64,000 bases of DNA from a virus (IMGVR_UViG_3300020037_006332:8561-72560), one strand, 5' to 3'. Shown: positions 39 to 63,656, counted from the first letter of the stretch. Numbers and translations are program-made. The notes: generated by a model not told the origin, from the letters alone.

Positions 39-98
39 GTCTATTTTCTCCGGGGGTTAATTCGCTCGCTATATCATAGCTTCGGCAGCTTGGCGAGT

Positions 99-2165
99 CT
101 ACTGAATTCTGGCGTAGTAGGCTTTGAATTGTTCGGTTAGGTGCCGGCGGTACTGTTCCACGGCGTCAATGAGGCCCTGTTTTTCCCAGAATGCGTAGCA
201 CTTCGGGAATGCCTTCTTTAGGCCCTCTAGCCCCTTGGTTACTCCCCAAAATCCATCTGGCTTTTTGTGCGACCACGGTTCGCCGCCGGCGGCCTCGAAA
301 ATGGCCCGGCCAAACTCGGCGAAACCTTCCCACGTGCTTTGAACGGCGTAAGCCGATAGGGGCACGTCGCTGTCTTTGACTTGCTTCCACCAGTCGCTGC
401 GTCCGCCGCTGTTGTTGGCAATGGTCCGGACGGCACTGGTTTGGATTTCCTCTAGGAATGCTTCTACCCATTCCTGGTTTTTGGATAGCTCGAATTGGCC
501 GGTCCCTCCGCAGTCCAGGGCGTGGGCAAATTCATGGGCATAAATTCCTTCATTGCCGGAGCCGGCGACGTTGTGGATCGTGTTGTCGCCAGCCGCGTAG
601 AATCCGCCCACGGTAAACCCGGCGGGCCTGCCGGTGCGTTTCTCGAATTCGGCTTGCAGGGACTCCCGGTTAGCGTAGGCTTTCATGCCGCCGGCCGTCC
701 CCTTGGCGATGCGTTCCTTAGCCTTGGCTGAAAACCCACGCATGGATTTTCGCATTCCGGTTTTGTATTGCTCCGGCTTGCGGCCGTAGTTCGGGGCGTA
801 CTCGCCAAGGGCTTCGTTCATTTCCTTTTCAAAGTATTCCCCTAGGATTCGCTGCGTTTCTAGTGATAGCTCGGCACGCTCACGGGGCTGGTTTATAAAG
901 TTAATTCCCCGGGCGTCGGCGGCGGCGTTGACTATCCTTTGTTGGATTGTGTTCAGGTTCTCGCCGGTATTGAATGCGGCGTGCAGCATGTCGCCGGTAA
1001 TGCCTAGCGGGGCTAATTTCTTCACCAGCCCGGGCGAGATATCGACTAGATGGAAAGCATACTTGGGGTCTAGTTTGTAGTCGAACCAATCCCGGCGGCT
1101 GACGGTATCGACTAGCTCGTCGGTACTGCTGTCGATGGCGTCGGCCAGCTTCTCCCCCACGGCGACGCGGCTGGTGCCGGTGCTTTCGTCGAAAAGCGAT
1201 TGCTGGCCCTTGGCGGCCTTGCGTTTGGGTGCGGCGGATTCTCCGGGCCCGTCCCCAAACTTTCCATCGGCCGCCCGGGGGTGCTTACTTTCGTCCCACG
1301 CATAGCGAAACTGGCGGGCGTAGCGGTAGACGGATTCGGCTCGGCGGAATCGCTGGGCGTATTGTTCCACGGCGTCCACCAGCCCATGCTTGTGCCAATA
1401 GGCGTAGCACTGCGGAAACTGAGTTTTGGCGGCCTCGGGGTCTTCAAATAAAAGCCGGCCAAACTCGGCGAAACCCTCCTCGGATCGCGTGCAGGCGTAG
1501 GCCGATAACGGCACTTCCCACGGCACTAGATCGTGCCACCAGTTATCGAAATTGCCGGAATTAAAGCCGGCTTCCATTGCGTCCAGGACGGTCTGGTTAA
1601 TTATCTCGGCTCGCCATGCGTCTTCCCACTCGTTCGTTTGGGAAAACTCATACCGCTTTCCGTTCCAGTCAATCGCGTGGGCAAACTCGTGGGCGTAGCT
1701 CCCGGCCTGACCTTCCGTGGCAATGGTTGCTATGTAGCCCTTACTGCGGTCAAAAAACCCCATCACGCCTGCGTTTTCGGGGAGCCCTGACGCTACCGAA
1801 ATTTCGGCGGAATCTTCGTAAGCCTCGAATCCATTGGGGCACGAATTGCTAATCCGCTCGATGGCCTTGCGGCTGAATCGGTCCAGCACGCTGGCCATCT
1901 GCTGGCGGTACGCCTTGACGTTATCCCGGGATAAAAACGCCTTGCTTTCTTGCCCCGGGAAAGTCTTTAGCTTGTGGGATTGCCGTAGCCGTTCCTCGAT
2001 GCTCTGGCGGTGGTCGGTTGGTTCAGGGGCCGATGGTTCGGCTCCGCCGCCCTCGCCAAACTTCCCGTCTTCGGCCCTCGGGTGCTTACTTTCGTCCCAC
2101 TGGGCGGCGTAGCGGTCCAGGTAGGTGAATTCGGCGAATGCCAGCCGGTAGGCTAGGTCGTTCAT
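99..2165 (-). CDS. Putative head-associated protein with two WDESKHPR tags and two anthrax-lethal-factor-like (zincin) metallopeptidase domains
   Basis: Start moved to MNDLAY (AAGGA RBS). Two HEFAH...LSAYA...EGFAE...FPxCYAxW units and two WDESKHPRAxDGKFG motifs. Confidence 0.8.
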   Translation of the reverse strand: MNDLAYRLAFAEFTYLDRYAAQWDESKHPRAEDGKFGEGGGAEPSAPEPTDHRQSIEERLRQSHKLKTFPGQESKAFLSRDNVKAYRQQMASVLDRFSRKAIERISNSCPNGFEAYEDSAEISVASGLPENAGVMGFFDRSKGYIATIATEGQAGSYAHEFAHAIDWNGKRYEFSQTNEWEDAWRAEIINQTVLDAMEAGFNSGNFDNWWHDLVPWEVPLSAYACTRSEEGFAEFGRLLFEDPEAAKTQFPQCYAYWHKHGLVDAVEQYAQRFRRAESVYRYARQFRYAWDESKHPRAADGKFGDGPGESAAPKRKAAKGQQSLFDESTGTSRVAVGEKLADAIDSSTDELVDTVSRRDWFDYKLDPKYAFHLVDISPGLVKKLAPLGITGDMLHAAFNTGENLNTIQQRIVNAAADARGINFINQPRERAELSLETQRILGEYFEKEMNEALGEYAPNYGRKPEQYKTGMRKSMRGFSAKAKERIAKGTAGGMKAYANRESLQAEFEKRTGRPAGFTVGGFYAAGDNTIHNVAGSGNEGIYAHEFAHALDCGGTGQFELSKNQEWVEAFLEEIQTSAVRTIANNSGGRSDWWKQVKDSDVPLSAYAVQSTWEGFAEFGRAIFEAAGGEPWSHKKPDGFWGVTKGLEGLKKAFPKCYAFWEKQGLIDAVEQYRRHLTEQFKAYYARIQ

Positions 2166-2218
2166 GGTGGCATCCTTGCCAGTGGTGGGAATCCCGCTGG
2201 CCCATGATACCAAACCGG

Positions 2219-2527
2219 CTAGCGGTTGGTAAACGTCTTGCCGCGTTTCTTGACTTTGCTGGGGGCTAATTCCTTGGCTGTGGCGGTGCTTTGGCGGATG
2301 ATCTTGCGGGTGAGCCGGTCCAGCCGCTCGGCTTCGGTTTCCGGGGCTCGGGGCGGATCGACGGCCCGATAGCGGAGCATGCAACCGGCCCACGGGAATT
2401 GCTGGTTGAATCGCACGGCGGGGCGGTTCAGGCGTTCCAGGTGCGAATCTCGAAGTTCGCGGGTCGGGTAGCTCTTGAACGTCCGCCAGCCGGCTTTTTC
2501 GTCGAAGATTTCAATGCTAAAGTTCAT
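2219..2527 (-). CDS. Hypothetical protein
   Basis: ORF from MNFSIEIF, overlapping the upstream gene's stop, basic C-terminus. Confidence 0.65.
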   Translation of the reverse strand: MNFSIEIFDEKAGWRTFKSYPTRELRDSHLERLNRPAVRFNQQFPWAGCMLRYRAVDPPRAPETEAERLDRLTRKIIRQSTATAKELAPSKVKKRGKTFTNR

Positions 2528-2777
2528 GCGGTTCCTCGCGTTCGGCGGCCAGTCCGCCAACTAGGTAATTTCGGATTTCCTCGATAAGCCGATGCCGGCT
2601 GCCGTCCGGTATGCCGGGGTGCCCGTGGTCGCATCGGTTGGAAATCGTGATCGAGCCCGGGAAATCCTGGTCGAACCTGATTGTTTCGCCGGCATCGGTG
2701 CGGTCAATTATCGCGTCCACGATTTCGCGGCAAAGCCGGTTGATCGTTTCGTCGGACTTGACGCCTTTACGGGCCAT
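2517..2777 (-). CDS. Hypothetical protein
   Basis: 86-aa ORF downstream of the promoter at 2884-2911. Confidence 0.65.
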   Translation of the reverse strand: MARKGVKSDETINRLCREIVDAIIDRTDAGETIRFDQDFPGSITISNRCDHGHPGIPDGSRHRLIEEIRNYLVGGLAAEREEPHEL

Positions 2778-2883: not shown

Positions 2884-2911
2884 ACTATAGCGAGCGGTTT
2901 TGGCTTGTCAA
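2884..2911 (-). promoter_or_regulatory. Sigma70-like promoter with CGCTCGC box
   Basis: TTGACA-16 nt-TATAGT; spacer ends in CGCTCGC. Confidence 0.75.
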
Positions 2912-5900
2912 GCGTACCGCCAGCGGGGCCGGTAGTAGCGTTCCACGCTGCCGCTGGCGGCGTTGCGGGCTTGGAGGTCTTTTAGGTGCGGGAAGTCTTT
3001 GAGGATTTCCTGGGGGATGGTGCCGCCCTGGGCGATGTGGTCCTTCATGGCGGCCACGTAGTCGCGGTTCGCCTGCTGGACGTCGTAGTCCCCTTTCTTG
3101 CCGGCTTTCTGTAGGTGGTGCCACTGGGCCCTGGTGAATCCCCATTCGTTGGCTGGTCGGCCGCCGCCGGACTTGGGTGGCTCGGGTTTCTTGGGCGGTT
3201 CCGGGTCTTTGGGCTCGGGGGTCTTCGCTTCGGGCTGGTTGGGCTTGCTTTCTTCGGCGGCCTGCTGGGCTTTGCCGATTAGGCCATGCTTCTGCCAAAA
3301 CGCATAGCACTTGGGGAATTTCTCTTTGGCTAGTTCCTCGTTCTCGAAAATAAAACGGGCATATTCCGCAAACCCCTCTGAGGCGTTTTTGTTGGCGTAT
3401 TCGGAAAGTCGGTAGCCATGCTGGCGGCTATATTTGATTTCATCCTGGTACGCGACTTGCCACTGCGTATCGCTGGATAATTTCGATTCGCTGTAGCGGA
3501 ATTTAGCATCTAGGATATGGGCTTTCCGCTCCCACGCATCGCGGTCAAAGTCGATGGCGTGGCCCAGCTCGTGGGCCAGAATCGACGCGGGCCCCATGTC
3601 TCCCATGTCCTTTTCGAGTGGCACCACTAGCTCGCCCTTTTGGCCTGCGAAATAGCCGCCAATGCGGCTGTTTTGCGTGTTGATACGCTGGCGGCTGGCG
3701 GCTGCGTAGGCCCGGGTCACTGACAGCGTATCGCTGTGGACTTCGATTTTTTGGACGGATTTGCTAATCCGCTCGGCGGATTTCGGGGAGAACGTATTGA
3801 GGACGGCCCGGACGGATGCGTTAAAGCCTTGCATTTGCTCCGGCTTGGCTTTGAAAGCCACCATTTTGCCGGACTGATTGGCCATTTTCTTGACGTCGCC
3901 GGGGTTAATTTTGGCGAATGCGGCGGCCACGGTTTTGCGGAATGGATTATCTGCCGGGTCTTCTTCTTCCGGTTCTGGTTCGGGCTCGGGTGCTTTGGGC
4001 GGCTCGGGCTTCTCGGGTGGGCCATCGAATAGCCCCTTCTGCCCCTTGCTGGGCTTTACCCGGACGTCTTCGGTAGTCGCTCCGCCGCCCTCGCCAAACT
4101 TCCCGTCGGCCGCTCGGGGGTGTTTACTTTCGTCCCATTCGTAGCGGGCCACGTCGCCCCGGCGGGCAAACGGCACGGCGTCCAGTTCCTCGGGGGTGGC
4201 GTCGTGCTCGCCCCAGTCTTCCCAGCCGCCGCCCTCGCCTTCCGGGGCCATCCCGGATTTATTGGCGTTGTACAAGATTTCGGCGGCTTGGCGGATTAGC
4301 TTGGGGTCGGTTTTGCTAGGCTTTTCGGGCGGGTTGCGGAGTAAATCCCAAAGCCGGCCGGCTAGGTCTTCATCGTCGGCATTGGCCCCGCCTTCGTAGC
4401 CCCGGCCGATGCCCAGCTCGGGAATGCTGCTGGCCAGCCGGCGGGCGATATCGTCCAGGCCGGGGACGCTGGCGGCGTCGCCGCCGGTGTTCTCCAGGTG
4501 GGCTAGTTGCTTTGGGGTTAGGCCGGTTTGCTTGCGGGCTTCGGCGATAGCGTCCAGGGTGGGCTGGTAGGCTTCGGCCTTTTCCTGGTAAACGTGGTCC
4601 AGGGTTTTGGCTAATTCTTCCGGGTCGACGCCCCAGTCTTCGGCCTCACGGGCGACTAGCTGGTTCGATAGGTCATCCACCTTTTGGCCACGCATCCGCT
4701 CACGCGGGGCCTGGGCGTTGGCGGGCTGCTGGTCGGTGTGTTTGACGTTGCCGATCTTGGCATTGTTGCGGGCTAGGTATTTCTTGGCCCGGGCGGTCAT
4801 TTCGTCCTGAATCGCCTTGCGGACGGTGGGGTCGCTGGCGATGCCCGGGGCGAGATAGACGTCGGCGTCAATCTTCCCAGTCTGGCCGGTGGCCCGTTTC
4901 ATTTCAAACGCCCCGGCGACCTTGCTGTCGTGGATCACGGTGACGGTGACCGTGCCGGTGGCCTTGTCGGTCTTAATGCCCACCTGAAGGGCCTTGCGGA
5001 CTTGGCTGGCGGTGCCGGCCGTCGGCTTCGGTTTCTCGGGGGCGGGCTGGGCCTGCCGGGTTTTAGATTCCGCGATAGCGGCCCTGGCTTCGGCCAGTAG
5101 GTCCTGCTTCCGCTTGATATCGGCGTCCAGCTTGCTGGGTTTCTTGCCGGCCTTTCCTTTGGGCTCGGGCTGCTTCTTGTTGATGCTGCTGACGTTCTGG
5201 CCGGTTAAATTCTTGGGTCCGGCGTGGATATGGCCGTTGTCGTCAATCAGCACGGGGGTGCCGCCGTCGCCCTCGTGGGCCCCGATGGTGACCCAGCGGG
5301 CGTAACGTAGGATTTTCCCGGGGCGGCGGTTGCGTTCGGTGTCTGCCTGACGCATCGAAGCCAGAGAAGCCCGGTTCTCGGCTAGGACATTTTCCAGGGC
5401 GGCAATCTGTTTCTTGAGCTGCTTCTGCTCTTTTGCGTTCAGGGTCGGGAGCATGGCCGCCCCACGCTCTAGGGCTTCCTCTAGCTGGCTGTTTTGCTTT
5501 TCAAGGTGGGCAATATCTTTGGCAAAGCCGGTTGGCTCGGCCTTCTCGGCCGGGGCAAAGTCAGCCCGGACGTCTTCCGGGAGTTCAATTCCGTCGTGCT
5601 TCGCGTCGCTGATAGCCCCGACGTGCTGGCGATAAGTCGGTGTGTCAATCTCGTGGCTGCCAATCATCTTATCGACGTCCAGGCTAGAGATATCCAGCCA
5701 CCCTTGCTTGCCTCCCACAAAGATTTGCAGGCCGTTGCCGTGGGCCCGGATATGGGCCGGATCGGCGAGCGGCGTGGCTCGCATTTGCGTGGTGTGGTAA
5801 ACAGTTTCGCCGGATTTGATTTTCTCGGCGATGGCCTTGGCCGTAGTCTCGGCCCACTGCTTTTTAGTCCACTTCGTAAGGTCCGGGCGGCTGCCGCCGC

Positions 5901-7794
5901 TGGAGCCCCCGCCGCTGCCAAACTTCCCATCGGCGTCACGTGGGTGCTTGTCTTCATCCCATAGGCCCCGCTGGTGGTCGCCGTAGCGGTCTACGTCGCC
6001 GCCCCGGGCGTTCCGGCTGGGTTCGGGGATGTTCGACGGGAATAGCGGGCTGGGGCTGCCGTCATCCGGGTCGTCGTCATCGCCGCCCCCGGGAAACCAC
6101 CCGTCCCCGTCTTCGGCTTCGGCTTCGCCGCCGGGGTTAATTTCGGGGGTGTCTTGGCCCACGGTTTCCTTGAGTTTGGCGAATGCCTTATGGGCGTCGC
6201 TGGAGTGGAATTCGCTTACCAGCTTGGCCCGAAGCTGGTTGGCGGTGGGGTTATTGCTGCCGCTATTGGGGCTCATGCCGGCGGCTTTGGTTAAATCTCC
6301 CTGGGGAGCCGTGGCGGCGTTGGGGTCGTTCGGGTCGCCGCCCTGGCCTTGCATGGCGGCCATTTGCTGCTGGCCGGCGGCCGTGGCCTGGGGGTTTTGC
6401 AGGGTGGGCTCGTCGGGTTCGGGGATGGCGGCCCCGATGGCGTCCAGGACGTCGGACTCTTTCAGGCGGGCCCCCATGTTCCAAGCCTTTTCCATGCCGG
6501 CCAGCTTGGCTTCGACGTCGGGTAGCTGGGTCTGAATCACAAACCGCATATCGACGTTATGGGCACTGGCGTCGTTATAGATTTTGAGCGGCTTGAGTAG
6601 GTCGCGGGTAATCGTTTCTTCCAGATTCGTGGCGTCAAATTTGACGATATCGAGCATGGTCTGCAAATGGAGGTCGGCCACGCCGGAGCCCATGCCGGTG
6701 GCTTCGGCTTCGCTGGTGAGCACTTGGCCCAAAATGTAGCGTTTGATGCGGTGGCCAAAGTAGCCGTTTAGCAGGTTCTGGAATGCCTCGATGCCGCCCG
6801 GGTTGGGCTCGATGTGCTCGACGCCGTAGGCCATGCTGGTATCCCCCAGCGGCTTAGGAAACAGGACGATGGTTTTGCGGCCGTTGCGGTTCTCGGCGGC
6901 GTTCTTGACGTCCTGGTAGGCGGAGTCGTTGCCTTCGGGGTAGTACCAGATTTCAAAGCCTAGGGCGGCTCGCTCCAGAAACTCCAGAAACAGCCCCAGC
7001 ATTTCCTGCTTCTGAAACCACTCCCAGTAAATCCGGGAGCGGATACCGACGCCGTGGATGCTGCCGGCGTCCAGCGGGGACTCGTAGGCGGCGTCTTCGA
7101 TCAGATATTTGTGGATGGCCACCATCGACCGCTCGTGGGGGGCTAAAAACGTGGCTAGCCCGGCCTCGGTCGGGACCACGACGCGGCCGTCGATCAGGTC
7201 GTGGGGCTTGAATTGGGAGCCCACGCGGATGCCCACTTCGTCGCGGGGGTGTTCGTCGCTGCCGTCATCCTGCCGGAAAACCAGCTTGTCGCCGTTAATG
7301 GGGAGCCAATCGTCGACGATGATATCGCGGCCGTTGGGGGTAATTTTCCAGCCGAAACGGTGCTGGATGGCGTAACGGCCGTACCAAATAGCCTCGGACA
7401 GCGTGTAGCGGTACTTGGTAAAATTGCGAGTGGCCCGGAGGATGTTAGTCATCCGCTCTTGCAGGGCCTTGTGGTGGGGCAGGTCGGGCCCGTCGACTTC
7501 GATATGCCAGTCCAGCAGGGCTACGGATCGCATCCGCTGCTCCAGGCACTCCATCACGCCGATGTCGTTCCTCATGTAGCGGGCGTTATCAAGCGAATGC
7601 TTGAGGGCCTCGTCCGGGCTGCGGAACGTCTTGGCGATGGTCGAAACGATGCCCTGGAACGTGTGGACCGTCGGCATGACCGGGCGGCCCATATTGGGCG
7701 GGGCGGCCTTAAACTTCCGGGCGGGATCGCGGCGGTTGGCGTTGTCGAATTCGTTGCCCTTAGTGGGCCCGCTGCCGGGAGTTTGCTGGATCAT
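2908..7794 (-). CDS. Phage portal protein (DUF935/Mu gp29-like) fused to a roughly 1100-aa extension with WDE[SD]KHPR tags and a C-terminal zincin domain
   Basis: Start at MIQQTP (AAGGA RBS). DUF935-type segment KRYILGQVLTSEAEATGMGSGVADLH. Extension contains HELGHAID...LSEYA...EGFAE. Confidence 0.85.
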   Translation of the reverse strand: MIQQTPGSGPTKGNEFDNANRRDPARKFKAAPPNMGRPVMPTVHTFQGIVSTIAKTFRSPDEALKHSLDNARYMRNDIGVMECLEQRMRSVALLDWHIEVDGPDLPHHKALQERMTNILRATRNFTKYRYTLSEAIWYGRYAIQHRFGWKITPNGRDIIVDDWLPINGDKLVFRQDDGSDEHPRDEVGIRVGSQFKPHDLIDGRVVVPTEAGLATFLAPHERSMVAIHKYLIEDAAYESPLDAGSIHGVGIRSRIYWEWFQKQEMLGLFLEFLERAALGFEIWYYPEGNDSAYQDVKNAAENRNGRKTIVLFPKPLGDTSMAYGVEHIEPNPGGIEAFQNLLNGYFGHRIKRYILGQVLTSEAEATGMGSGVADLHLQTMLDIVKFDATNLEETITRDLLKPLKIYNDASAHNVDMRFVIQTQLPDVEAKLAGMEKAWNMGARLKESDVLDAIGAAIPEPDEPTLQNPQATAAGQQQMAAMQGQGGDPNDPNAATAPQGDLTKAAGMSPNSGSNNPTANQLRAKLVSEFHSSDAHKAFAKLKETVGQDTPEINPGGEAEAEDGDGWFPGGGDDDDPDDGSPSPLFPSNIPEPSRNARGGDVDRYGDHQRGLWDEDKHPRDADGKFGSGGGSSGGSRPDLTKWTKKQWAETTAKAIAEKIKSGETVYHTTQMRATPLADPAHIRAHGNGLQIFVGGKQGWLDISSLDVDKMIGSHEIDTPTYRQHVGAISDAKHDGIELPEDVRADFAPAEKAEPTGFAKDIAHLEKQNSQLEEALERGAAMLPTLNAKEQKQLKKQIAALENVLAENRASLASMRQADTERNRRPGKILRYARWVTIGAHEGDGGTPVLIDDNGHIHAGPKNLTGQNVSSINKKQPEPKGKAGKKPSKLDADIKRKQDLLAEARAAIAESKTRQAQPAPEKPKPTAGTASQVRKALQVGIKTDKATGTVTVTVIHDSKVAGAFEMKRATGQTGKIDADVYLAPGIASDPTVRKAIQDEMTARAKKYLARNNAKIGNVKHTDQQPANAQAPRERMRGQKVDDLSNQLVAREAEDWGVDPEELAKTLDHVYQEKAEAYQPTLDAIAEARKQTGLTPKQLAHLENTGGDAASVPGLDDIARRLASSIPELGIGRGYEGGANADDEDLAGRLWDLLRNPPEKPSKTDPKLIRQAAEILYNANKSGMAPEGEGGGWEDWGEHDATPEELDAVPFARRGDVARYEWDESKHPRAADGKFGEGGGATTEDVRVKPSKGQKGLFDGPPEKPEPPKAPEPEPEPEEEDPADNPFRKTVAAAFAKINPGDVKKMANQSGKMVAFKAKPEQMQGFNASVRAVLNTFSPKSAERISKSVQKIEVHSDTLSVTRAYAAASRQRINTQNSRIGGYFAGQKGELVVPLEKDMGDMGPASILAHELGHAIDFDRDAWERKAHILDAKFRYSESKLSSDTQWQVAYQDEIKYSRQHGYRLSEYANKNASEGFAEYARFIFENEELAKEKFPKCYAFWQKHGLIGKAQQAAEESKPNQPEAKTPEPKDPEPPKKPEPPKSGGGRPANEWGFTRAQWHHLQKAGKKGDYDVQQANRDYVAAMKDHIAQGGTIPQEILKDFPHLKDLQARNAASGSVERYYRPRWRYA

Positions 7795-7833
7795 ATTCGC
7801 ATCCTTGCGGTGGGCTGCTAAAATCGGGCCATC

Positions 7834-8133
7834 ATGGCACGGAATGCCCACCAATGTCTGGCGTGTCTGCGGCTCTTAGATGAGACAGCAATTTCGCTGA
7901 CTGGTGGGGCACGCAAGCATATCTGTTTTGCGTGTTGGAAAACGCTCCCGAAGTTTAGGCGGATACAGTTGCAGTTGTTTTGCCGAACGGTGCCAGACGG
8001 GGGCGTCGGCATCCGGGAATTCCTGCTCCGGCTTGTGGAAGCGATGGAGCGGGCGGCGGAATACGACGAAACCGATGAGCCCGATGACGATATCGAGCCC
8101 GGCGGCCCCGGCTGGAGCCCTCAGTGTAACTAA
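7834..8133 (+). CDS. Small CxxC...CxxC zinc-binding protein, on the opposite strand
   Basis: CLAC and CFAC motifs; TTCGCA-17-TAAAAT upstream; stop overlaps the convergent HNH stop (CTAA). Confidence 0.55.
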   Translation: MARNAHQCLACLRLLDETAISLTGGARKHICFACWKTLPKFRRIQLQLFCRTVPDGGVGIREFLLRLVEAMERAAEYDETDEPDDDIEPGGPGWSPQCN

Positions 8134-11472: not shown

Positions 11473-11500
11473 AGTATAGCGAGCGAATGCGGCTGGTCAA
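11473..11500 (-). promoter_or_regulatory. Sigma70-like promoter with CGCTCGC box
   Basis: TTGACC-16-TATACT. Confidence 0.7.
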
Positions 11501-21345: not shown

Positions 21346-21375
21346 AAACGCCCGGGGGTTAATTCCCGGGCGTTT
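21346..21375 (-). terminator. Terminator hairpin with AATTAACC loop
   Basis: AAACGCCCGGG/CCCGGGCGTTT stem followed by a U-rich tract on the minus strand. Confidence 0.7.
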
Positions 21376-40159: not shown

Positions 40160-40939
40160 TTAAAACTCCTGCTCTAGCGATGGGACGGAGTAGTCGCGGC
40201 GGCTGTTTTTCTGGAAAAGCTGGCCCTGGGGCCGCCGGTCTTGCTGCTTCGATAGCCAGTTATTCAAAAAACGCGGGATATTCACGGGCCTTTCGCTCGG
40301 ATTGTCGATGCACCATTGGCGGGCCTTGCGGCATTCCGCCAGCACGTTCACGCCGGGATAGGCTTCGGCGTACTCGTCGATCTTGGATTGGCGGAGTAGG
40401 TAAACCCCGGCCTTTTGGTTCTTTGAACCTGAGTGGGCAATTTCGAGAATCACGGGATCGGGATTAATTTCTGGCGTTCCGGTTGTATGGGTCTGGTTCT
40501 GGTGTGGGTCTGGTGTGGTGTGGGTCTGGTGTGGGTCTAGCGTAACGTTTTCGTTACGGGCCCGGCCCGTATCCGTAACGCTTTCGGGAAGTGGTTGCGG
40601 GAAAACAACTTGCGGCTTTACGTCTTTCCTTAGCGTCTTGTACACGTCGACCAGCTCGACGTATGCGTCTCCGTTGATGCGATACCTCTGGAGTAGCCCC
40701 ACGGCGGCCAGTTCGGCAATCCAGGATTCGACGTCTTTGGCGGTGACTTGACCGGCGACCATGCGGGCCGTGTATAGCCTCGCCATTACCCATTTTGCGT
40801 CGCCGTAGTACCTTCCCGCGTCGTCGCTGGCGGCAATCAGCCGGGTGTAGAGCGTTTCGGCTCCGATGCTAACGGCGTTCACCTTGTCGCTGTCCGGGTA
40901 GCTCTTTAAGAGGGGGTTATACGCTTCCCTGCGTGCCAT
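40160..40939 (-). CDS. Phage replication initiator / replisome organiser-like protein
   Basis: AETLYTRLIAASDDAGR N-terminal pattern, low-complexity linker, C-terminal YPGVNVLAECRKARQWC...RFLNNWL. Confidence 0.7.
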   Translation of the reverse strand: MARREAYNPLLKSYPDSDKVNAVSIGAETLYTRLIAASDDAGRYYGDAKWVMARLYTARMVAGQVTAKDVESWIAELAAVGLLQRYRINGDAYVELVDVYKTLRKDVKPQVVFPQPLPESVTDTGRARNENVTLDPHQTHTTPDPHQNQTHTTGTPEINPDPVILEIAHSGSKNQKAGVYLLRQSKIDEYAEAYPGVNVLAECRKARQWCIDNPSERPVNIPRFLNNWLSKQQDRRPQGQLFQKNSRRDYSVPSLEQEF

Positions 40940-41501
40940 CCTTGGGCTCCTTGATTTTTTTCCAGCAAACGCCGCAAAAGTACCGCCAAGTCTTATCGTC
41001 GTAGTGCGGCCAGTGCGGCGGCATCCTGACGAAAGCGATATCAATCGAGTCGAGTATTTCCGCCTCCGGTAAGCGGCGTAGGAACGTCTTTAGGGTCTGC
41101 TCGCGGTCCCTGTCTGCGTGCGTTCCTTCAGCCCATCCGCAGTTCGCTGTCCAGTGCTGCCAGAGTCGCCGCACGGAGTTGATTTCTGCTTCGCGTAGCT
41201 CTAGCAAAAGGTCGTTGTATGCCCGGGTCTGCTCTTGGCGTTCCTGGCGTTCCTTGGATTGGTCGGCCAGCGACCTAGGGACCATTGACAGCGGAACGGC
41301 CGCCTTGCCGCGATTACAGTCCTGGCAGGCGGTCAATAAGTTTCGCTCATGGTCTTCGCCGCCCTCCGCCAGTGGCACGATATGATCGGCTTCCAAGATG
41401 ACAGCCGGCGGCGATTTGCCGCAATATTGGCAACTAAACCTATCCCTCTTGAATACTTCAAACCGCTGTCGCTTTGATAGTCCCTTGCGTGGCTTTGCCA
41501 T
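40917..41501 (-). CDS. HNH endonuclease
   Basis: RFEVFKRDRFSCQYCG...LEADHIVPLAEGG...NLLTACQDCNRGK. Confidence 0.9.
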   Translation of the reverse strand: MAKPRKGLSKRQRFEVFKRDRFSCQYCGKSPPAVILEADHIVPLAEGGEDHERNLLTACQDCNRGKAAVPLSMVPRSLADQSKERQERQEQTRAYNDLLLELREAEINSVRRLWQHWTANCGWAEGTHADRDREQTLKTFLRRLPEAEILDSIDIAFVRMPPHWPHYDDKTWRYFCGVCWKKIKEPKDGTQGSV

Positions 41502-41525
41502 ATGGGTGGCCTCCCGTGGTCCAAC

Positions 41526-41562
41526 AAAAACGCCCCCGGGCACGGTCTTGTGCTCCGGGGGC
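41526..41562 (-). terminator. Terminator-like hairpin
   Basis: GCCCCCGG..GCAC/GTGC..CCGGGGGC stem with A5 at 41526-41530. Confidence 0.55.
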
Positions 41563-41614
41563 ATGATCTTGGCGAAGTGCCGTGGTCACTGTCAAGCTAC
41601 TGCGAGCGTACCCG

Positions 41615-42127
41615 CTATTTAGTGGCCGTCCCGTTTGCTAGCACTGCCAATAGTTCCCCGGCGGCGGTGTAGCTGCCGCACTCGTCGGCTAGTCGCTTGG
41701 CCATGAAAACCACGCGGGCGGGGCCTTCCAGCATGGATACAATCCCGTCGGCGGCCCGGACTAGGATCACGTCTTTGGGCTCCTTGTCGACGCGGGTGGT
41801 GACGGTCACGGCCTTGCCCTTGGGCTTGTTCTTGGCCCCCTTGGGGCGGCCGACGGCCTTCTTGGCCTTGAGCGGCCCGGCGGGCCGGAGAATCCCGCCC
41901 AGCGTGCCGGGCTTGGCCTTGGGTAGCTTCAGCTTGGGGACGGTCTTGGCCTTCTCGGTCTTGCCCAGCAGGCCCCGGCGGACTTGATAGATCAAGGCCG
42001 GCGAGCACGGGATGCCCTCGGCTTGCAGCGTGGCGGCGATGCCGGCGGCGGGGGCCTTGGGATCGGCGGTTAGCAGTTCGCGGATACGCTCGCTGCGGCT
42101 GCTGGTCTGGTCGGTCGTGGTGCTCAT
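41615..42127 (-). CDS. Basic Lys-rich putative DNA-binding protein
   Basis: SRSERIRELL...IAATLQAEGIPCSPALIYQVR; Lys-rich linker. Confidence 0.65.
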   Translation of the reverse strand: MSTTTDQTSSRSERIRELLTADPKAPAAGIAATLQAEGIPCSPALIYQVRRGLLGKTEKAKTVPKLKLPKAKPGTLGGILRPAGPLKAKKAVGRPKGAKNKPKGKAVTVTTRVDKEPKDVILVRAADGIVSMLEGPARVVFMAKRLADECGSYTAAGELLAVLANGTATK

Positions 42128-43459: not shown

Positions 43460-44410
43460 CTACTCTAGTGCCTTTAGTATTTTCTTGGTCGCGGACTCGC
43501 CGACTTTCCGAAGCGTGCGAATCGACTTAGGGGCCACGGTGAAACCGGCCCGGTCGCTGGTCTTCCAGGCGTAGAGCGAGCCATCCGGGAGCCGGGCGTA
43601 GGTGTTATCCCCTAGGGCGGCCTTGACGGTGTTCTCGAATAGCTCGATATCCTTTTCCAGCTCTTTGATCTGGGCCCGGGCCTCGTCGGCCTTGCTGGCC
43701 ATATCGGCCGGGATGCTGGTCACTTCTACCAGTAGCCCGTTATCGCGGGGGTGCAGTTGGGTTAAAACTCGGCTGGTTAATTCGCTGTCATCGGCCGGCG
43801 GCATTTTGTTGTTTTGAACATACCACCAGAATTTTGCGGCCGATTCCAGCATGGCCTCGATAAACTCGTCGTCCCGCTGGACGTCGTACCAGACTAGCCG
43901 CTGGCCTCCGATCAAGGCGGCGAGCGTGCCCCACGTGCATCCCGTGCAAGCCAGTTCGGCCTGCACTTGGATTTGATACTGGAGCGGGATGCTGGCTTCC
44001 TCCTTCCAGTGCTTGCCCATCATTTCGTTGGTGGTCTTCACTTGCAGCACGCCGACTAGCGGGTTCGGCTCGATTTGCTGCCATGCGTCCGGGGTACAGC
44101 CCAGAAATGGGTAGTCCGGGTGCTGGTGCACGGTGAACGGCGGGGCGGCCTGGACTAGCCGGCCCGTCCGCTCGGCAAACTCGTCGATGATCGGGCCCTC
44201 GAATCGTTGCCCCCAGCGGATACGCTCGTGGAGGGCGGCTAGGTCTTCGGCCGGCAGGTTGCCGGTCTTCTCGGCCCAAACGGCGACGGGGCTTTTCCAG
44301 GGTGAAAACCCTAGGGCGGCGGCGATATCACTGGCCCCTAGTAGACTGCGGCGGGCCAGCAGCCACGCCTCGCGGCTACTGTAGGCGGTTGGTGCGGGGT
44401 GGCGTGTCAT
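43460..44410 (-). CDS. YqaJ/lambda-exonuclease family recombinase exonuclease
   Basis: WLLARRSLLGASDIAA...SPVAVWAEK, FLGCTPD, LQVKT, YQIQVQ. Confidence 0.9.
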   Translation of the reverse strand: MTRHPAPTAYSSREAWLLARRSLLGASDIAAALGFSPWKSPVAVWAEKTGNLPAEDLAALHERIRWGQRFEGPIIDEFAERTGRLVQAAPPFTVHQHPDYPFLGCTPDAWQQIEPNPLVGVLQVKTTNEMMGKHWKEEASIPLQYQIQVQAELACTGCTWGTLAALIGGQRLVWYDVQRDDEFIEAMLESAAKFWWYVQNNKMPPADDSELTSRVLTQLHPRDNGLLVEVTSIPADMASKADEARAQIKELEKDIELFENTVKAALGDNTYARLPDGSLYAWKTSDRAGFTVAPKSIRTLRKVGESATKKILKALE

Positions 44411-49824: not shown

Positions 49825-49850
49825 CCGGCCCGGGGTTAATTCCGGGCCGG
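49825..49850. other. Hairpin with GGTTAATT loop
   Basis: CCGGCCCGG-GGTTAATT-CCGGGCCGG. Confidence 0.75.
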
Positions 49851-49866
49851 TTCGCTGGGCAGTCGC

Positions 49867-51687: not shown

Positions 51688-52200
51688 ATGATTGCCGTCC
51701 CTCGCAAGGATCGCCGCCCCCGGCTCGAACGTATTACCGAAGCGGTTAAAAACAGCACTGGCGGGGAGCTGCCGCCGGAGGTCGTGGGCCAGCTTGCGGA
51801 AGCGATTGATAAGATGGTCCCGGCGGGCTACGATCTGCACAAACTCAAGGCCACGACGGTTGATATTGCCGATTCCCTGGAGGGGGTGGCGGTCGCCGAT
51901 ATGGCCCGGATTTTGAATGCCACCATGAAATGCCTGGGGATGGTGCTGCCGAAAATCGCCAATAGCTCGGCGGTCTACAGCACGGTTTGCGACGTGGCTC
52001 GGCGGAAAGTCGAGAAACTCCACGCCAAACTGGGCAGCAAAACCTACCTGGAAACCATGAATGCCTGCCTTGAGAAAACCCCCGATGGGGCCTCGCCTGA
52101 AAACGTCGCCCTCATGCTCACGCAATGCTACCTTCTCGAAATGGAACGGCTCGCGGCGGTCGCGGTCCAGGCCAGCAAGAAACCGGCCGATAAAGGTTAA
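51688..52200 (+). CDS. Hypothetical helical protein
   Basis: AAGGA RBS before MIAVPRK; follows the plus-strand promoter. Confidence 0.7.
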   Translation: MIAVPRKDRRPRLERITEAVKNSTGGELPPEVVGQLAEAIDKMVPAGYDLHKLKATTVDIADSLEGVAVADMARILNATMKCLGMVLPKIANSSAVYSTVCDVARRKVEKLHAKLGSKTYLETMNACLEKTPDGASPENVALMLTQCYLLEMERLAAVAVQASKKPADKG

Positions 52201-52240
52201 TTTTACGGCGGCTAGGATGCCGTTGATAGGGTCGATAGAT

Positions 52241-55127: not shown

Positions 55128-55873
55128 AGGTGCTTTACGCCTTTGGCCTTGAGCTTGGCGAGTACGTCCACGGTGCGGCTATCGTAGGCCGGTTTGGCGG
55201 GGCCCCACTGGATCGGCTGGACGGCTTGGGCGTAACGCTCGTACCATCCAAGGTCATTCAGGTCGTTGGTGTAGACGGTACTGGAATGCGTGTAGCCGGT
55301 GCCGGAGTAGCCCATAACATACTGGCAATCTTCATCGGTGTCCCACGGCTCGACGGAGCCCCCGGAAACCGTGGTCGCGGCGTCCCGGAATAACATATCG
55401 AAATTCCCCACGGGTTCCACGGGGTAGCCGCTGATTCGGTCGATGGTTTCTTTGCGGACGGCTAGGGCGGAATGAAACCAGCGGCGTTCGATATGTACGC
55501 TGTTGCCGTAGTGCACCCAATTCCGCAAGGGGTTGGAAATCCCGGAGCGGGCTAGGGCGGCGGCCTGGGCGGCGACATAGCCGGGCAGGTAGATATCGTC
55601 GTCTTCCCAAATGAGCACGCCGAACGTCTCGGGCGGGCACATGGCGAAAATCCGGTTAAATTTCTCGCCTAGTGATCGGCCTCGGTCGGTGGTGGTCACG
55701 ATTTCCCAGTTGGGGCCGGACTGGGGCACAAACGTCCCGCCGTCTTCCAGGATAATCATCTTGCGACGGTCGGCCGGGTAGGTCTGGGCCTCCCAGAGGG
55801 CGAGCGTATTTTCGACTAGGCGGGGCCGGCGGTACGTGGGGACGGCGGCCACCATAAACGGCAATTCGCTCAT
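55124..55873 (-). CDS. GT-A fold (GT2-like) glycosyltransferase, paralog of 53842-54609
   Basis: VPTYRRP...IILEDGG...IWEDDDIY...WFHSALA. Confidence 0.8.
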
Positions 55874-56316
55874 GCAATGGCCCGCCGTGGGTTGTTTTTT
55901 CGCCCTGGCGAGCCAGCCGGAACGGTTACGGCGTCCCCGGGAAGCCAGCCGTGTTTTAGTCTGTCTTGGATGGTCCCGGCCGAAAGCCCTGAAATCCGGC
56001 ACCACTCGGCTAGCGTCCGGGTGACGCCATCGCACTCAATGACTTTATTGCTTCGGCGATTATTTGATTGCTCAAGCGGCGTAGCCCATCGGCAGTTTTC
56101 TGGCGTGTAGTCGCCGTCGTTGTCTATCCGGTCGATGCTGTGCCGGGGGCTGGGCTTGCGGCCCATGTCGGCCAAGAAATTGGCGAAATCTTGCCAGCGG
56201 TCGCAAACCCGAATGCCACGCTGGTGATACCTTTGCGATTCCTGATTATTGGGGTTACTGCATCGCTGACGCATTTGCTTCCAAACGGCGTATTCTGGGA
56301 TACTACTTTTGGCCAT
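55870..56316 (-). CDS. HNH homing endonuclease with C-terminal DNA-binding extension
   Basis: [48 protein letters not shown]. Confidence 0.9.
56081..56185. repeat. 105-bp exact repeat, copy 2 (copy 1 at 8179-8283)
   Basis: Base-by-base identity. Confidence 0.9.
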
Positions 56317-58243
56317 TTTCCTCTGCCCTCCTGATTGCTTCATCTATAAGAGACGGAAATGGGTCGGTAACGTCCAGCTTGAAAGCGAGTCCGCTGGTGA
56401 CGGCAAGGGCGGCGGCCTTGAGCTTGTCTTTCCAGCCCCAGCGGCCTTGGCCGTCACGCATCCAGCCGATGATTTCCTCGCGGTGCTCGCGGCACCCGTC
56501 GACGCCCCAGAGGTCCATTTGAGCCTGCCGGGCTTTGCAGTCGCATCCCGGGGCGGCGTTGACCCCGATGGTTTCCAGCATTTTCGCTAGCTCGCTGCCG
56601 GGGCCTTTGCCCGGAGGGGCAAGGTGGATGCGTTGGGCCGGCTTGTCCTGGGGCTGGCGGCCCAGCACGGTGAGGCCGTGCTGCTTGGGTGTGTGCCACG
56701 CGATAAACCACTCGGGATTTTCTTCCAGGAACGTCTGGATCGCGTTGTGGAAGCCTAGCTTGCCGTCGGGCCCGGTGCCGCCATAGACGTGCGTGTCGTG
56801 GCGGACAATCCAGCGGCGGACCACGCGGCTATAGTGCCGGAGGTCTTCCAGGAACATTTCGCCGGTGTGCCGGGTGTCGATAAATAGCAGGTCCGTGGGG
56901 CCAATGTCCAGCGGCTTGGGTGGGTTCGGCAGCAGTTCCATAAGCGTGGCATTTGGGGCCATCGTTTGCAGGAGCCGGACTAGGCCGTGGTTCCATTCGG
57001 TGTTATACGATAGCAGCTTGGCCGGGTTGCCGGCGGCCAGCCCGATGACGCTTTCGCGTCGCTCCGAAATGTCGGTCACGTGACTGCACTGGGCGGCCAG
57101 CTCGGTTAATTTCGGGATATGCTGGTTTAGGTCGCGGTTGGGCTCGTTGAAAGCCAGCTCGGCGAGTTGGGCCGGGGTTTCAATGGTGCCGTGTGCTCCG
57201 GCGGGTTTGGGTCGCTCGGCGGGGCGGTGCCCGGGCGGGTTGATATGGCCCACGGGATCGGCCAGCAGGAAAGCCCAGTCGGCTTCTGAAAACAGCCGGG
57301 CGGCGACGAAATGCTCGTAGACGGGGGTGAGGTCCAGGCCCAGCTCTTGGTGGCCCAGCACGTAGTTGCGAACTTTATTCCAGCGGGTCAGCGGGTATTT
57401 CACGCCATTGGGGTGCCCGAAGCGGTGCAGCCACTTGAGAAATCCTAGGCACATGGCCCGGCCGCCCTGCTGGCGGAATTTCTCGTGCATATACATTTCT
57501 TCGCCGCCAAAGCCCCGGAATTCCGGGTTAAATCCGGGCCAGATAGCCTTGCGGCAACTGAATAGGCCCATGCCCTGGCCGGGGATTTCAAACTCGTCGT
57601 CCGGGCTGTAGCCAAGTGGCCTGCACCCGGCGGCGGTGAGCGTGTTTTCGTGGCCATAGAATGGGATCGTGCCCAGCCCGATATCGACGTCCTGGTGGTT
57701 GGTCGTGAGGGTCACTAGGCGGGCGGTGCCGTCCTGGTCCAGGACGCTGAACCGCTGGCCGTCCGGGGCCTCCCACGCGGTCCCCCAGATTCCCCACATT
57801 TCCCCACGCCAAAAATCGACGAAATGGGTCGAGATTTGGGCCAGCGAATCGTATTCCAGGGGCCCGGTGAGTAGGTCCGTAGACTCCGGGTGGGCCTCGT
57901 AGTAAGCGATTAGCCGCTGGAGGGCGTAGGGCTCCAGCAGGACGTGGGAGTCCATGCAAAGCACGTAGGGGGCGTCTGCCTCGCGGATAACGCGGTCCTT
58001 TGCTAGGGCGGGTCCGCCGGGTCCGGGGGCGGCGATATACTTGGCGGAGTGGCACCCGTGGCGGGCGACGCCTAGCAGGCGGGTAAGGTGGGGACTGGCC
58101 GGAGAATCCGGCTTGTTGTCGATCAGCAAAAACTGGACGCGGCTAAGGTCGCCCTGGTATTTGCGGAGGGCCTGGAGGGTGAAATAGGTGCCGTCGTGAT
58201 CGTCATACGTGGGGAATCCCACGGTTAAAAACGGGTCTGCCAC
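56303..58243 (-). CDS. GT2 glycosyltransferase-methyltransferase fusion with C-terminal Cys domain
   Basis: [10 protein letters not shown]...CMDSH...FGGEE; DLLFIDTRH...IVRHDT; GCDCKAR...WGVDGC. Confidence 0.82.
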
Positions 58244-62237: not shown

Positions 62238-62252
62238 GGCACGCTTTCAGGC

Positions 62253-62420
62253 TTAGGTGGTGGTGGTGGTCAAGTAGGCTACCGACTTCCAGGCGGAGCC
62301 GTTGTAAACCAGAAATTCCTGGGTGGTCGTGTCGAAATAGGTAAACCCGATTTCGGCGTTCGTCGGCCGCTTGGCGGTGGTGCCGCTGGTTTCCAGGCCG
62401 TGTTCTACATAAGGGGGCAT
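62253..62420 (-). CDS. Small virion-type protein (55 aa, below the ORF-track cutoff)
   Basis: MPPYVEHGLETSGTTAKRPTNAEIGFTYFDTTTQEFLVYNGSAWKSVAYLTTTTT; GTTAxRP..G..YFDT...YNG.W motif common in phage fibre proteins. Confidence 0.7.
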   Translation of the reverse strand: MPPYVEHGLETSGTTAKRPTNAEIGFTYFDTTTQEFLVYNGSAWKSVAYLTTTTT

Positions 62421-62432
62421 GGGTTAATTTCC

Positions 62433-63656
62433 TTAGCTAAGGGTGATCGTAACGTCGTAGCCGACGTCTAGGGTGACGTCTTCTAGCTTGCACTTGTCGA
62501 GCAAAATGCCGGTGGTAAATGAGCCACTGGCCAGCGGGTCGGAAATGGTCGAGCCGGCGGCCAGCGTGCAGTTGTTAATGACCTTGGCCCCGGATCGGTA
62601 GGTTAAATCCAGGGTACTGCCGTTGCTGCCGGAATAGTCTTCGACGTCGCCGCCCGCGTGCAGGATGCCGCCGTAGTTCAGGACGGTGGCGGTAGTCGCG
62701 GTGGGTAGGAAAACTTCAGCCCCGTCGTAAATATTCAGGGTGTCGCTGGGGGTGACGCTCCCCTTGAGGGTCACGGCGGCCCCGTCGGCGGCGGTTAAAT
62801 TTTCGAGTCCGGTGGTGTTGGCGATTTCCAGGGTGAGCGGGTTGCCGTTGGTGGGCGTGGCTACAATGTCTTCGATAACGCTGGAATGCCCAGAGAAGAC
62901 GCTGACCCCGACGTCGCCCCCATAGACTTGCAGCGACGCCCCGGTCGTGAGCCCGGTAAGGCAAACCGTGGGCTCGGCGGGGTCGCTCCGGTTGGCGGAG
63001 TTGAGAATCACGACGGCCCCAGCCCCTAGCGAATAGAATTTGGCCCGGGCTCCGGTGCCGGCATATTCCACGGGGACGGCGGTGGCTAGGTGGGTGGCCC
63101 GATATTCGTCGTAGCCGGCGGGGTTCCGCTCGGGGAGCCCGATGCTGCCGCTATACGTCGACATAACCCGGCAGGTGGTGCTGACGCAATGCTGGAGGCC
63201 ATACAGCAGGTCGATATTCGATAGCTCGAAGATCAGCGTATCGCCAGCCCCGGGGACGGCTCCGCCGCTCCAATTCGACGCGACGTTAAACTCGTTGGGG
63301 CCGCTATTGGGGGTGACGCTTGCGATGCCAATCGCGTGCAGGTTGGTGCCGCCGGTCCCTTGGGCCTTGCTGACGGTGATCGCATGGGAGCGGCCGGCGA
63401 CGCTGGCCGTGCAGTCGACGCGAAGCACGCCTTCGGCAAAGGTGAGTTCGGTGAATTCCGTGATCGTGGAAGCCGCTAGGGCGGCGGCTAACCCGGTGCG
63501 GACGCTGGCCGTCGTGGTGGCAGTGGCGGTATAGGTGACGCTCTTGCCGTTGATCGTGACGGTGAACGTGTTGCCAATGGCGACCACGCCCGACACGGTG
63601 ATCGTGTCGACCTGGGCGACGGTTGGGGCGTGTCCTAGGAAAGAGACGTTCGCCAT
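62433..63656 (-). CDS. Putative tail structural protein (beta-rich)
   Basis: AQVDTITVSG...FTVTINGKSVTYTA N-terminus; WSGGAVPGAGD; Thr/Gly-rich. Confidence 0.6.
   Translation of the reverse strand: MANVSFLGHAPTVAQVDTITVSGVVAIGNTFTVTINGKSVTYTATATTTASVRTGLAAALAASTITEFTELTFAEGVLRVDCTASVAGRSHAITVSKAQGTGGTNLHAIGIASVTPNSGPNEFNVASNWSGGAVPGAGDTLIFELSNIDLLYGLQHCVSTTCRVMSTYSGSIGLPERNPAGYDEYRATHLATAVPVEYAGTGARAKFYSLGAGAVVILNSANRSDPAEPTVCLTGLTTGASLQVYGGDVGVSVFSGHSSVIEDIVATPTNGNPLTLEIANTTGLENLTAADGAAVTLKGSVTPSDTLNIYDGAEVFLPTATTATVLNYGGILHAGGDVEDYSGSNGSTLDLTYRSGAKVINNCTLAAGSTISDPLASGSFTTGILLDKCKLEDVTLDVGYDVTITLS

Follow-up and report, generated by a model that had tools for sequence, protein, structure and literature searches.

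What kind of signal is a short DNA word that recurs about once per kilobase along a viral genome, always in one orientation? The question is raised by IMGVR_UViG_3300020037_006332:8561-72560, a 64,000-nt stretch (hereafter the window) that comprises bases 8561-72560 of a 72,560-nt IMG/VR viral contig; counts given for the contig refer to its whole 72.5 kb. The contig is linear, ~86% complete and 61% G+C, and all but two or three of its ~100 genes lie on the minus strand. Parts of it are present in four public wastewater metagenome runs, among which no RNA run is listed, as DNA of an uncultured phage; the source samples comprise the IMG metagenomes 3300020049, 3300020046, 3300020036 and 3300005664 and run SRR26424594. 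For comparison we used a sister phage, L044, a Logan contig from a wastewater run of which 21 kb was examined and which matches window 32030-52336 at 74-96% nucleotide identity. Here, our analyses showed that GGTTAAWWH is an orientation-fixed and strongly selected recognition word, which occurs ~1 per kb and keeps one polarity over 72.5 kb regardless of gene direction. We regard it as a real, lineage-private directional DNA signal with a fair chance of representing something new.

A nucleic-acid-level word beyond codon usage

The initial annotation had described, by eye, a strand-polarised motif roughly every kilobase, GGTTAA followed by A or T, with more than 50 copies against roughly 8 expected. 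Our counts were stronger than this description. GGTTAA was found 66 times on the plus strand and never on the opposite strand of the window (74 versus 0 in the contig), where Markov models of orders 0-2 predicted 9-16 copies and placed it as the top 6-mer (z = 21.8). All 66 window copies continue with A or T, and the eight-base form GGTTAAWW occurs 72 versus 0 times in the contig. The proposed definition was borne out as far as it went, but the true word is longer, namely GGTTAA-WW-H on the plus strand, which reads DWWTTAACC on the sense strand of nearly all genes. Across the contig, WW is TT in 37 copies, AA in 20, AT in 15 and TA in none of the 72 (P = 2e-9). The ninth base is likewise never G (0/72; P = 2e-13), and the tenth is mostly a pyrimidine. 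Outside positions 1-10 the flanks hold no information, i.e. there is no conserved flank of the integron attC or dispersed-repeat type, and variants with one mismatch show no enrichment. After masking of the sites, Markov models of orders 1-3 predicted only ~2 forward and 0.4-1.3 reverse copies of the 8-mer, so the 72 copies amount to a ~36-fold enrichment of an asymmetric word of ~15 bits. Because so few reverse copies were expected, the lack of copies on the reverse strand does not by itself speak for avoidance, and avoidance of the reverse orientation was not significant after masking.

The composition of the tail gives a first hint of how the word may be read. The permitted tails AATT, AAAA and AAAT are A-tract forms, while AATA, which would introduce a TpA step, is never present; the tail is itself preceded by the TpA step in TTAA and by the GG anchor. 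Judged from these letters, the word appears to follow a duplex-shape pattern and not an RNA or single-strand pattern.

Since the genes share one strand, many words are asymmetric here (the 6-mer GCTCGG, for instance, occurs 109 versus 0 times), and synonymous codons were therefore shuffled within each gene. Sense-strand WWTTAACC was observed 46 times inside genes against 4.4 ± 1.9 in the shuffles (maximum 12; z ~21). The enrichment thus persisted after the correction for codon and dicodon usage that the initial annotation had called for, and the strand counts were far from similar (66 versus 0). Motif words ranked first among all 7- and 8-mers scored in this way. The next-ranked words, GTTTGTG, CACGTTCC and CCTGGA, were each confined to one frame, a pattern that suggests codon-pair effects. 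CCTGGA itself reached 131 copies on the sense strand of the window against 64 predicted by synonymous shuffling (~2-fold), nearly always in one frame (GTCCTGGA in frame 0 in 17/18), and it is enriched also in relatives without GGTTAAWWH; its excess is a codon-pair preference, not a DNA signal.

The settings of the word are varied. It is spelled by TTA-ACC (Leu-Thr) in 32 copies and by xTT-AAC-Cxx in 16, and a further 24 are found in non-coding DNA or straddle gene ends. The earlier claim of frame independence was confirmed in this respect, and the gene ends cited for it, at 9770, 19977, 29351, 37117 and 40160, were correct. Nine of the 34 TAA stop codons lie inside the full word. TTA-ACC spells a quarter of all Leu-Thr pairs, although TTA makes up only 5.6% of Leu codons, and 33 of the 95 TTA codons are followed by ACC; one third of the TTA codons in this phage exist only to spell the word, and its codon choice is bent by a DNA signal. 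Among synonymously accessible places, the word is held at 32/78 of those encoding x-Leu-Thr and at 14/27 of those encoding x-[Ile/Phe]-Asn-[Pro/Gln/His/Arg/Leu], i.e. about half of the places able to carry it without a protein change do so. Where the preceding codon is forced to begin with C, by contrast, none of 15 places holds the word (P = 2e-5), and the ninth position is therefore constrained at the DNA level across different amino acids.

Together, these results bear on the reading of the word as a by-product of codon, dicodon or amino-acid usage in genes that share one strand, a reading to which the extreme strand asymmetry of many other 6-mers lends some plausibility. It was rejected, being refuted by the synonymous shuffle, by the use of two frames, stop overlaps and non-coding DNA alike, by the DNA-level constraint on the base that opens the preceding codon, by the lack of enriched one-mismatch variants, and by relatives of similar composition that do without the word. 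We consider it practically excluded; the word is a nucleic-acid-level signal and not a coding by-product.

Distribution, polarity and lineage privacy

In the window, the word forms a 66-copy array (55..62801, +) on the template strand of nearly all genes. Its copies start at 55, 1595, 2782, 3903, 5203, 6135, 6289, 9768, 10084, 10425, 11961, 14914, 15525, 16837, 17053, 19975 and 21357, then at 21893, 23384, 24022, 25595, 26403, 27133, 27372, 27679, 29349, 30254, 30773, 32110, 32707, 33228, 33602 and 35793, further at 37115, 37537, 39590, 40158, 42147, 42328, 43760, 43775, 44436, 44727, 44900, 45348, 46765, 47347, 47407, 48635 and 49834, and finally at 50338, 51744, 52195, 53935, 54780, 55654, 57104, 57526, 58223, 60017, 60719, 61067, 61941, 62422, 62601 and 62793. 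The sites span the contig end to end without a strand change, at a mean spacing of ~950 nt. This spacing is more even than random (coefficient of variation [CV] 0.75 versus 0.98; P = 0.006), with two gaps below 150 nt against 10.6 expected (P = 0.0009). The exception to this sparing of short gaps is a tandem pair 15 nt apart (43760..43783, +), the only close pair, which is conserved in the sister phage. Unused accessible places were not closer to existing sites than random positions, and a simple one-site-per-domain saturation model is therefore not supported.

The mean spacing matches the Okazaki fragment lengths of bacteria and phages, and with the single-strand polarity and the easily melted AT-rich tail it could suggest lagging-strand primer start sites, used by a sequence-specific primase during unidirectional replication. 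We find this distinctly improbable. The tail follows the duplex-shape rule (no TpA) and not a template-reading rule, and known primases read 3-5 nt, not 9. Furthermore, no primase, helicase or polymerase gene was found on the contig, where the replication genes consist of a replication initiator (Rep, 40160-40939) and a 282-aa Cys-rich protein only, so that host DnaG, which reads trinucleotides, would be expected to prime.

With respect to genes, 50 of the 74 contig copies (68%) lie inside open reading frames (ORFs), and the 7% of the DNA that is non-coding holds the other 24 (32%; P = 2e-10), gene junctions being 4.5-fold enriched. The excess in non-coding DNA fits a signal placed wherever constraint allows. 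The distance to start codons varies from 2 to 148 nt, and only two copies form hairpin loops; its placement is therefore bound neither to translation starts nor to terminators. One of these hairpins is terminator-like (21346..21375, +), with the word as its 8-nt loop between the stem halves CGCCCGGG and CCCGGGCG, followed by a T run on the sense strand. The second (49825..49851, +) has the stem CCGGCCCGG / CCGGGCCGG, and its copy of the word is conserved in L044. A family of sigma70-type promoters, cTTGAC-N11-GCTCGCTATAnT, was identified at 2895, 11484, 15099, 24245, 35775, 46953 and 48706 on the minus strand and at 51628 on the plus strand; of the seven leftward members, one has an adjoining copy of the word (at 35793). 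The family shares a conserved GCTCGC in the spacer, adjoining the -10 element. Six more plus-strand GCTCGCTRTA boxes, at 64, 22213, 39289, 50268, 51185 and 51581, have no -35 element and may be antisense promoters or regulator sites.

Whether the polarity follows gene direction can be seen at the only convincing plus-strand gene, which encodes 170 aa (51688..52200, +) and has its own promoter and ribosome-binding site. The promoter (TTGACG-17 nt-TATAGT, ~51605-51640) is of the sigma70 type and belongs to the same family as the leftward ones. Codon scores are positive for this frame and negative for the opposite frames, and the product has a 64% identical homolog in L044, no family or PDB match and a low-confidence structure model (pLDDT 54); on sequence evidence, the ORF looks real. 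Both copies of the word in this region keep the plus orientation. The first lies inside the gene (51744..51752, +) in the frame G-GTT-AAA and is not conserved in L044, and the second (52195..52203, +) provides the stop codon (GGT TAA). GGT-TAA-TTTT also ends the homologous L044 gene, where the surrounding DNA is too diverged for a blastn alignment. In this 1-kb block, two GGTTAAWW copies on the plus strand compare with 0.03 expected (P = 4e-4, on a small sample). The initial annotation had asked whether the polarity flips in this block or follows the replichore. It does not flip there; the polarity is therefore a property of the DNA molecule itself, or of movement leftward along it, and is not set gene by gene by the sense strand. 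The replichore proposal fared no better, as no polarity switch was found anywhere in 72.5 kb, including around the Rep gene, whereas KOPS and replichore words switch at the origin and terminus.

The same region weighs on the proposal of DNA- or RNA-level selection, of which the nucleic-acid level stood and the RNA mark became unlikely. An RNA-level reading would take WWUUAACC in mRNAs as a mark recognised by a nuclease or by an RNA-binding protein, for example the CsrA of the phage. It draws on the location of nearly all copies on the gene sense strand, on the two terminator hairpin loops and on the CsrA homolog encoded by the phage. We consider it very improbable. In the mRNA of the plus-strand gene the complement would appear, and yet the copies there hold to the DNA polarity and one of them is conserved (read-through leftward transcripts being possible); there is no GGA core of the kind bound by CsrA and no Rfam family match; and the barring of TA, with AT, AA and TT permitted, is a property of duplex DNA.

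A further account, the main rival of the nicking mechanism set out below, would see the copies as an array of co-oriented sites to which a monomeric phage protein binds. In the manner of stoperators, the bound protein would obstruct or silence leftward (lytic) transcription in a direction-dependent way, or would mark the genome by coating it. An asymmetric word of ~15 bits in dozens of copies, in a single orientation relative to the direction of nearly all genes and enriched at gene junctions, would suit such a role, as would its lineage privacy, known from repressor/operator pairs, and the heavy use of accessible places, which suits a more-copies-better function. The plus-strand block resembles a small divergent regulatory module with its own sigma70 promoter, and its copies are oriented to stop leftward read-through without blocking the plus-strand gene. 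These copies do not flip; yet a repressor gene need not be blocked. A polarity flip between arms, as seen with stoperators, is not found here because nearly all genes share one direction. Against this account, stoperators lie in promoters and short intergenic gaps, while two thirds of the copies here are inside ORFs and only one leftward promoter adjoins a copy. No integrase or recognisable repressor was found by Pfam, PHROG, NCBIfam or PDB-sequence matching on the ~86% complete contig. Neither of the two 170-aa candidates (the plus-strand product and the orphan described below) matches the L5 or TipsytheTRex repressor in sequence, and the plus-strand product is only 64% identical between two phages that share an identical word. 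On balance we hold the stoperator-like account to be possible but rather doubtful.

Comparison with the sister phage and more distant relatives revealed both conservation and turnover of the word. In the 21 kb of L044, 23 copies and no reversed copy were found, at the same density as in the window. Within segments of ≤82% identity, 7 of 11 window sites were kept at 8/8 positions (P = 0.002), while some sites were lost and others gained, 5 of the 23 L044 sites lying in DNA without a window counterpart. Four JGI contigs represent strains >99% identical to the window, in which only one of the covered sites is not intact. Sequence comparison indicates that the sites are under both purifying and positive selection. 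Beyond this lineage, eight relatives (portal 45-58% or major capsid protein [MCP] 57-68% identical) were compared, namely five IMG/VR contigs with portals 45-52% identical and three contigs with capsid proteins 57-68% identical; among the eight are a 60-kb genome that is complete and a prophage carried by a bacterial contig of 153 kb. These relatives share structural genes only, the entire early half (window 13832-52665) being private to the lineage. They carry 0-6 scattered copies of the word, and no comparable polar word was found in them. The comparisons show a word that is, as far as these genomes reach, private to the strains represented by the window and to the L044 type.

Most candidate private words in the relatives were rejected as local protein repeats or iterons. 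The only dispersed candidate is GCGGAAAC in an IMG/VR contig with a 45% identical portal (G003, L026), where 9 sense and 0 reversed copies in 20 kb, in all three phases, compare with 0.9 expected; borderline after multiple testing, it may be a private polar word of that phage.

On the host side, ~700 candidate genomes were searched: five with the closest homologs of the phage's cytochrome c peroxidase, 401 Acidobacteriota (a tally that includes three unpublished genomes, G162, G034 and G059, used in the negative count only), and 301 of the order to which G411 belongs, G411 being the host genome of the related prophage. The word occurred at or below the frequency of the reversed control in the five genomes, and at or below control frequency in the 401 Acidobacteriota and in G411 and the 301 genomes of its order, where the three most asymmetric genomes had scattered sites and not clusters. 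The cytochrome c peroxidase is a weak host clue, with matches of ≤38% identity in Acidobacteriota and Myxococcus. Given the lack of enrichment in these genomes and its absence from the relatives, the word is probably a phage-read signal rather than a host Chi or uptake sequence.

Two leads in the Acidobacteriota chromosome G321 proved false. About 24 polar copies of GGTTAATTCC at C1:610-648 kb belong to an integron-like cassette array with a 35-nt conserved repeat, and the scattered GGTTAATTTT copies are part of a multicopy insertion element. The array itself (C1:610000-648000, L052-L054) contains ~60 co-oriented 35-nt repeats, one every 430-1000 nt, each ending in a GTTAGGC core, in an island of 50% G+C within 63% G+C DNA, and looks like a large chromosomal integron cassette array.

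The host searches also bear on a Chi- or KOPS-like signal, proposed in the initial annotation, in which the word would guide or stop a DNA translocase or helicase-nuclease. It might protect the free end of rolling-circle concatemers from a host RecBCD/AddAB-type enzyme, or mark phage DNA as self for a phage-encoded motor. The strictly one-way polarity over the whole genome, the even spacing and scarcity of short gaps, and a density suited to a signal recognised with a probability below one per pass are all consistent with this proposal; by analogy with RecBCD-Chi, a rolling-circle tail presents a single end whose polarity is constant, and one orientation would be enough for it. A host Chi would, however, be expected to abound in the chromosome of the host and in its other phages, whereas the candidate hosts searched (the 401 Acidobacteriota, the 301 genomes and G411) show no excess, and the related phages do without the word. 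Moreover, an AT-rich word would be ill suited as Chi in a host with a G+C content of ~61%, the phage encodes an exonuclease/annealase pair of its own, and no phage translocase was found besides terminase, whose large subunit (TerL) is common to relatives without the word. The host-signal form of this proposal gained no support from the genomes searched, and we judge the Chi/KOPS-like reading as a whole to be unlikely.

Candidate readers, possible nicking and gene content

A binding site for a phage protein, also among the early suggestions, remains the most general reading that fits the sequence data. The ParB-like, terminase and YqaJ/RecT proteins that had been named for binding assays gained no specific support as readers, TerL being shared with relatives that have no word. 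The reader should be encoded in the lineage-private half. Within this half, the 282-aa Cys-rich protein, Rep, an HNH endonuclease, a 170-aa orphan, RecT and a 54-aa protein (39308-43448) are 97-100% identical to their L044 counterparts at the protein level, while the proteins flanking the block 39308-44410 are 35-90% identical. The identity of the block points to recent exchange or unusually strong constraint. The 170-aa orphan (41615..42127, -) is a candidate reader. It is 100% identical in L044, lies directly upstream of the HNH gene and has no homolog outside the lineage among 5.8 billion proteins. Its predicted structure comprises an N-terminal, helix-turn-helix (HTH)-like three-helix bundle (AF2 pLDDT ~80, residues 7-53), a disordered lysine-rich basic linker with an AT-hook-like GRPKG, and a C-terminal helical hairpin. 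The HNH endonuclease (40917..41564, -; Pfam HNH 4.6e-12), also 100% identical in L044, is a candidate cutter. Its family is widespread in phages, often adjoining terminase genes, and membership alone does not therefore point to a site-specific nickase. Two homologs that were looked up are carried by contigs of 2-3 kb. Next to them, RecT (42188-43306, -; 97% identical in L044) and a YqaJ-type exonuclease (43460-44410, -; 91%), both recognised by Pfam, form a recombination pair. The arrangement makes a pairing of the orphan and the HNH endonuclease as reader and cutter suggestive.

Among specific mechanisms, strand-specific nick sites of the T5/tf kind are the single most likely one by analogy, and we favour them tentatively. 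The word would be read on double-stranded DNA by a phage-encoded sequence-specific protein, with the orphan HTH/AT-hook protein and the adjacent HNH endonuclease as candidates. One strand would be cut at each word, giving localized single-strand interruptions as in T5, tf, LUZ24-like and phiKMV-like phages, with ~75 nicks expected in one strand of the virion DNA. Once the DNA has entered the cell, the nicks could be sealed by ligation, or passing forks could convert them to one-ended breaks, used by the neighbouring RecT/YqaJ pair for recombination-dependent replication. The nick sites of Pseudomonas phage tf and LUZ24-like phages (TACT/RTGMC), of T5/BF23 and of phiKMV-like phages likewise have an exact, short, asymmetric and strongly enriched consensus. 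In phage tf, the exact 9-bp asymmetric consensus is present in 14 copies, ~20-fold enriched, on the top strand only, across convergently transcribed arms (PMC3517423). Phages related to tf carry the nick consensus in one strand only, and phiKMV nicks lie in the non-coding strand (PMC3517423). The word resembles tf-type sites in that all copies occupy one strand (here the template strand), whatever the gene direction, and in that a close relative keeps it on the same strand (L044, 23 versus 0). In favour of nicking we also counted that the HNH nuclease, the orphan DNA-binding candidate, RecT and YqaJ form one block, 91-100% identical between the sub-lineages.

Several observations weigh against this mechanism. 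The tf, T5 and phiKMV types have 4-14 sites, compared with 74 here at 1 per kb, a density 3 to 20 times above that of any described nicked phage, and the use of about half of the accessible places suggests a more-copies-better function that is not known for nicks. The tf, T5 and phiKMV types are defined by physical, ligatable nicks in virion DNA, while the analysis here covered assembled contigs of public runs. Described nick systems span a whole phage group, unlike the present word, which is missing in relatives at 57-68% MCP identity. The HNH endonuclease is from a family common in phages, whose usual association is with terminase and cos cleavage. The orphan HTH protein is linked to the word by shared lineage restriction only, and ~50 other orphan genes are equally restricted. 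Even T5 and tf have, to our knowledge, no identified site-specific nickase.

We reserve roughly a fifth of the probability for an explanation beyond the readings listed here. We see a modest chance that the word serves as the cis-acting component of a self-marking system not described so far, in which a phage reader would bind the oriented 9-bp word at near-saturating density and use its polarity to give the whole genome a direction. Such a system might act through programmed one-ended breaks that drive RecT/YqaJ recombination-dependent replication, or by halting or directing a DNA motor in such a way that phage and host DNA receive different treatment. If this holds true, it would be a genome-wide, phage-private analogue of Chi or KOPS and not a variant of nick sites or stoperators.

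The remaining gene content gives the setting of the array. Identified genes include TerL with an intein, head genes, Rep, the HNH endonuclease, RecT, the YqaJ exonuclease, the CsrA homolog, an N6/N4 DNA methylase, a GHKL ATPase beside a ParB-like protein and several auxiliary genes. A 20-kb megablast against deposited phages gave no match, i.e. no DNA-level similarity to a deposited phage was found. Viral contigs searched with the 282-aa protein and with the GHKL ATPase as queries yielded no match, and a portal search of JGI metagenome contigs gave matches only at 46-53% identity. Neither tRNA genes nor Rfam families were found when looked for.

The portal (Portal_Mu, first ~480 aa) is fused in frame into a 1648-aa protein (2908-7854) with a zincin-like Peptidase_M90 region near its end; the portals of relatives measure 505-1145 aa, some with different C-terminal additions. 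TerL (11497-13980) is interrupted by an intein (Pfam Intein_splicing). The word-free 2953-nt stretch 11961-14914, among the three longest, spans this intein, which fits a recent insert that has acquired no word so far. The GHKL (HATPase_c_3) ATPase lies directly upstream of the ParB/Srx-fold protein (24269-25012; together 24269-26380). The ATPase has weak similarity to the BbrUII/HgiDII restriction enzymes and to MzaB, the ParB-like protein carries a GxxRxxA motif and an HTH, and the pair may be a DNA-clamping or defence-related module. Auxiliary-looking genes occupy 30150-33129 and 52772-58243. Among them are the di-haem cytochrome c peroxidase, with its best matches in Acidobacteriota and Myxococcus, a subtilase, and a cluster of radical SAM/SPASM, methyltransferase and family-2 glycosyltransferase genes. 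A small membrane protein with a T4 Imm-type superinfection-immunity domain (PF14373) is encoded at 26848-27300, and the CsrA homolog at 45180-45362. An Atlas look-up of a 1117-aa protein gave weak tail-protein-like leads only.

Comparison with known systems

Few genome-wide directional DNA signals are understood, among them Chi, KOPS, stoperators and the still unexplained phage nick sites, and the word resembles each of these in part. The present signal is unusually clean, a 9-bp word with ~36-fold enrichment, perfect polarity and half of its silent opportunities used, for which a sister phage shows both conservation and turnover. It gives a well-defined system for finding the reader among a handful of small proteins, and could explain the purpose of strand-specific marks in phages.

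Chi, read by RecBCD/AddAB, and KOPS/SRS, read by FtsK/SpoIIIE, are likewise short, polar, over-represented words dispersed through coding DNA in any frame, and are read by a machine moving along the DNA. They differ as host words, abundant on the host chromosome, that change strand at ori and ter; the word here never switches. DNA uptake sequences (DUS/USS) have a similar density of ~1 per kb, but occur in both orientations, compared with 100% one-way here, and are frequent in the host, whereas the present word is rare in candidate hosts. The 21-nt direct repeats of the T1-like phage TLS, a pac-type phage, are another unexplained word repeated along the direction of transcription (PMC11447400). 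Unlike the present word, they are intergenic, lie ~76 nt upstream of start codons, number 18-21 copies and are probably associated with promoters (PMC11447400).

The stoperators of Cluster A mycobacteriophages (L5 gp71, the TipsytheTRex repressor) are also lineage-specific, junction-enriched and asymmetric sites in dozens of copies, with an orientation fixed relative to the direction of transcription (PMC9283540). L5-type repressors bind their 13-bp asymmetric sites as monomers, and their effect is lost when a site is inverted (PMC9283540). The word of the present phage differs from these sites in its length of 9 bp against 13, in the two thirds of copies that lie in ORFs, and in its lack of a homologous repressor, an integrase and a consistent promoter overlap.

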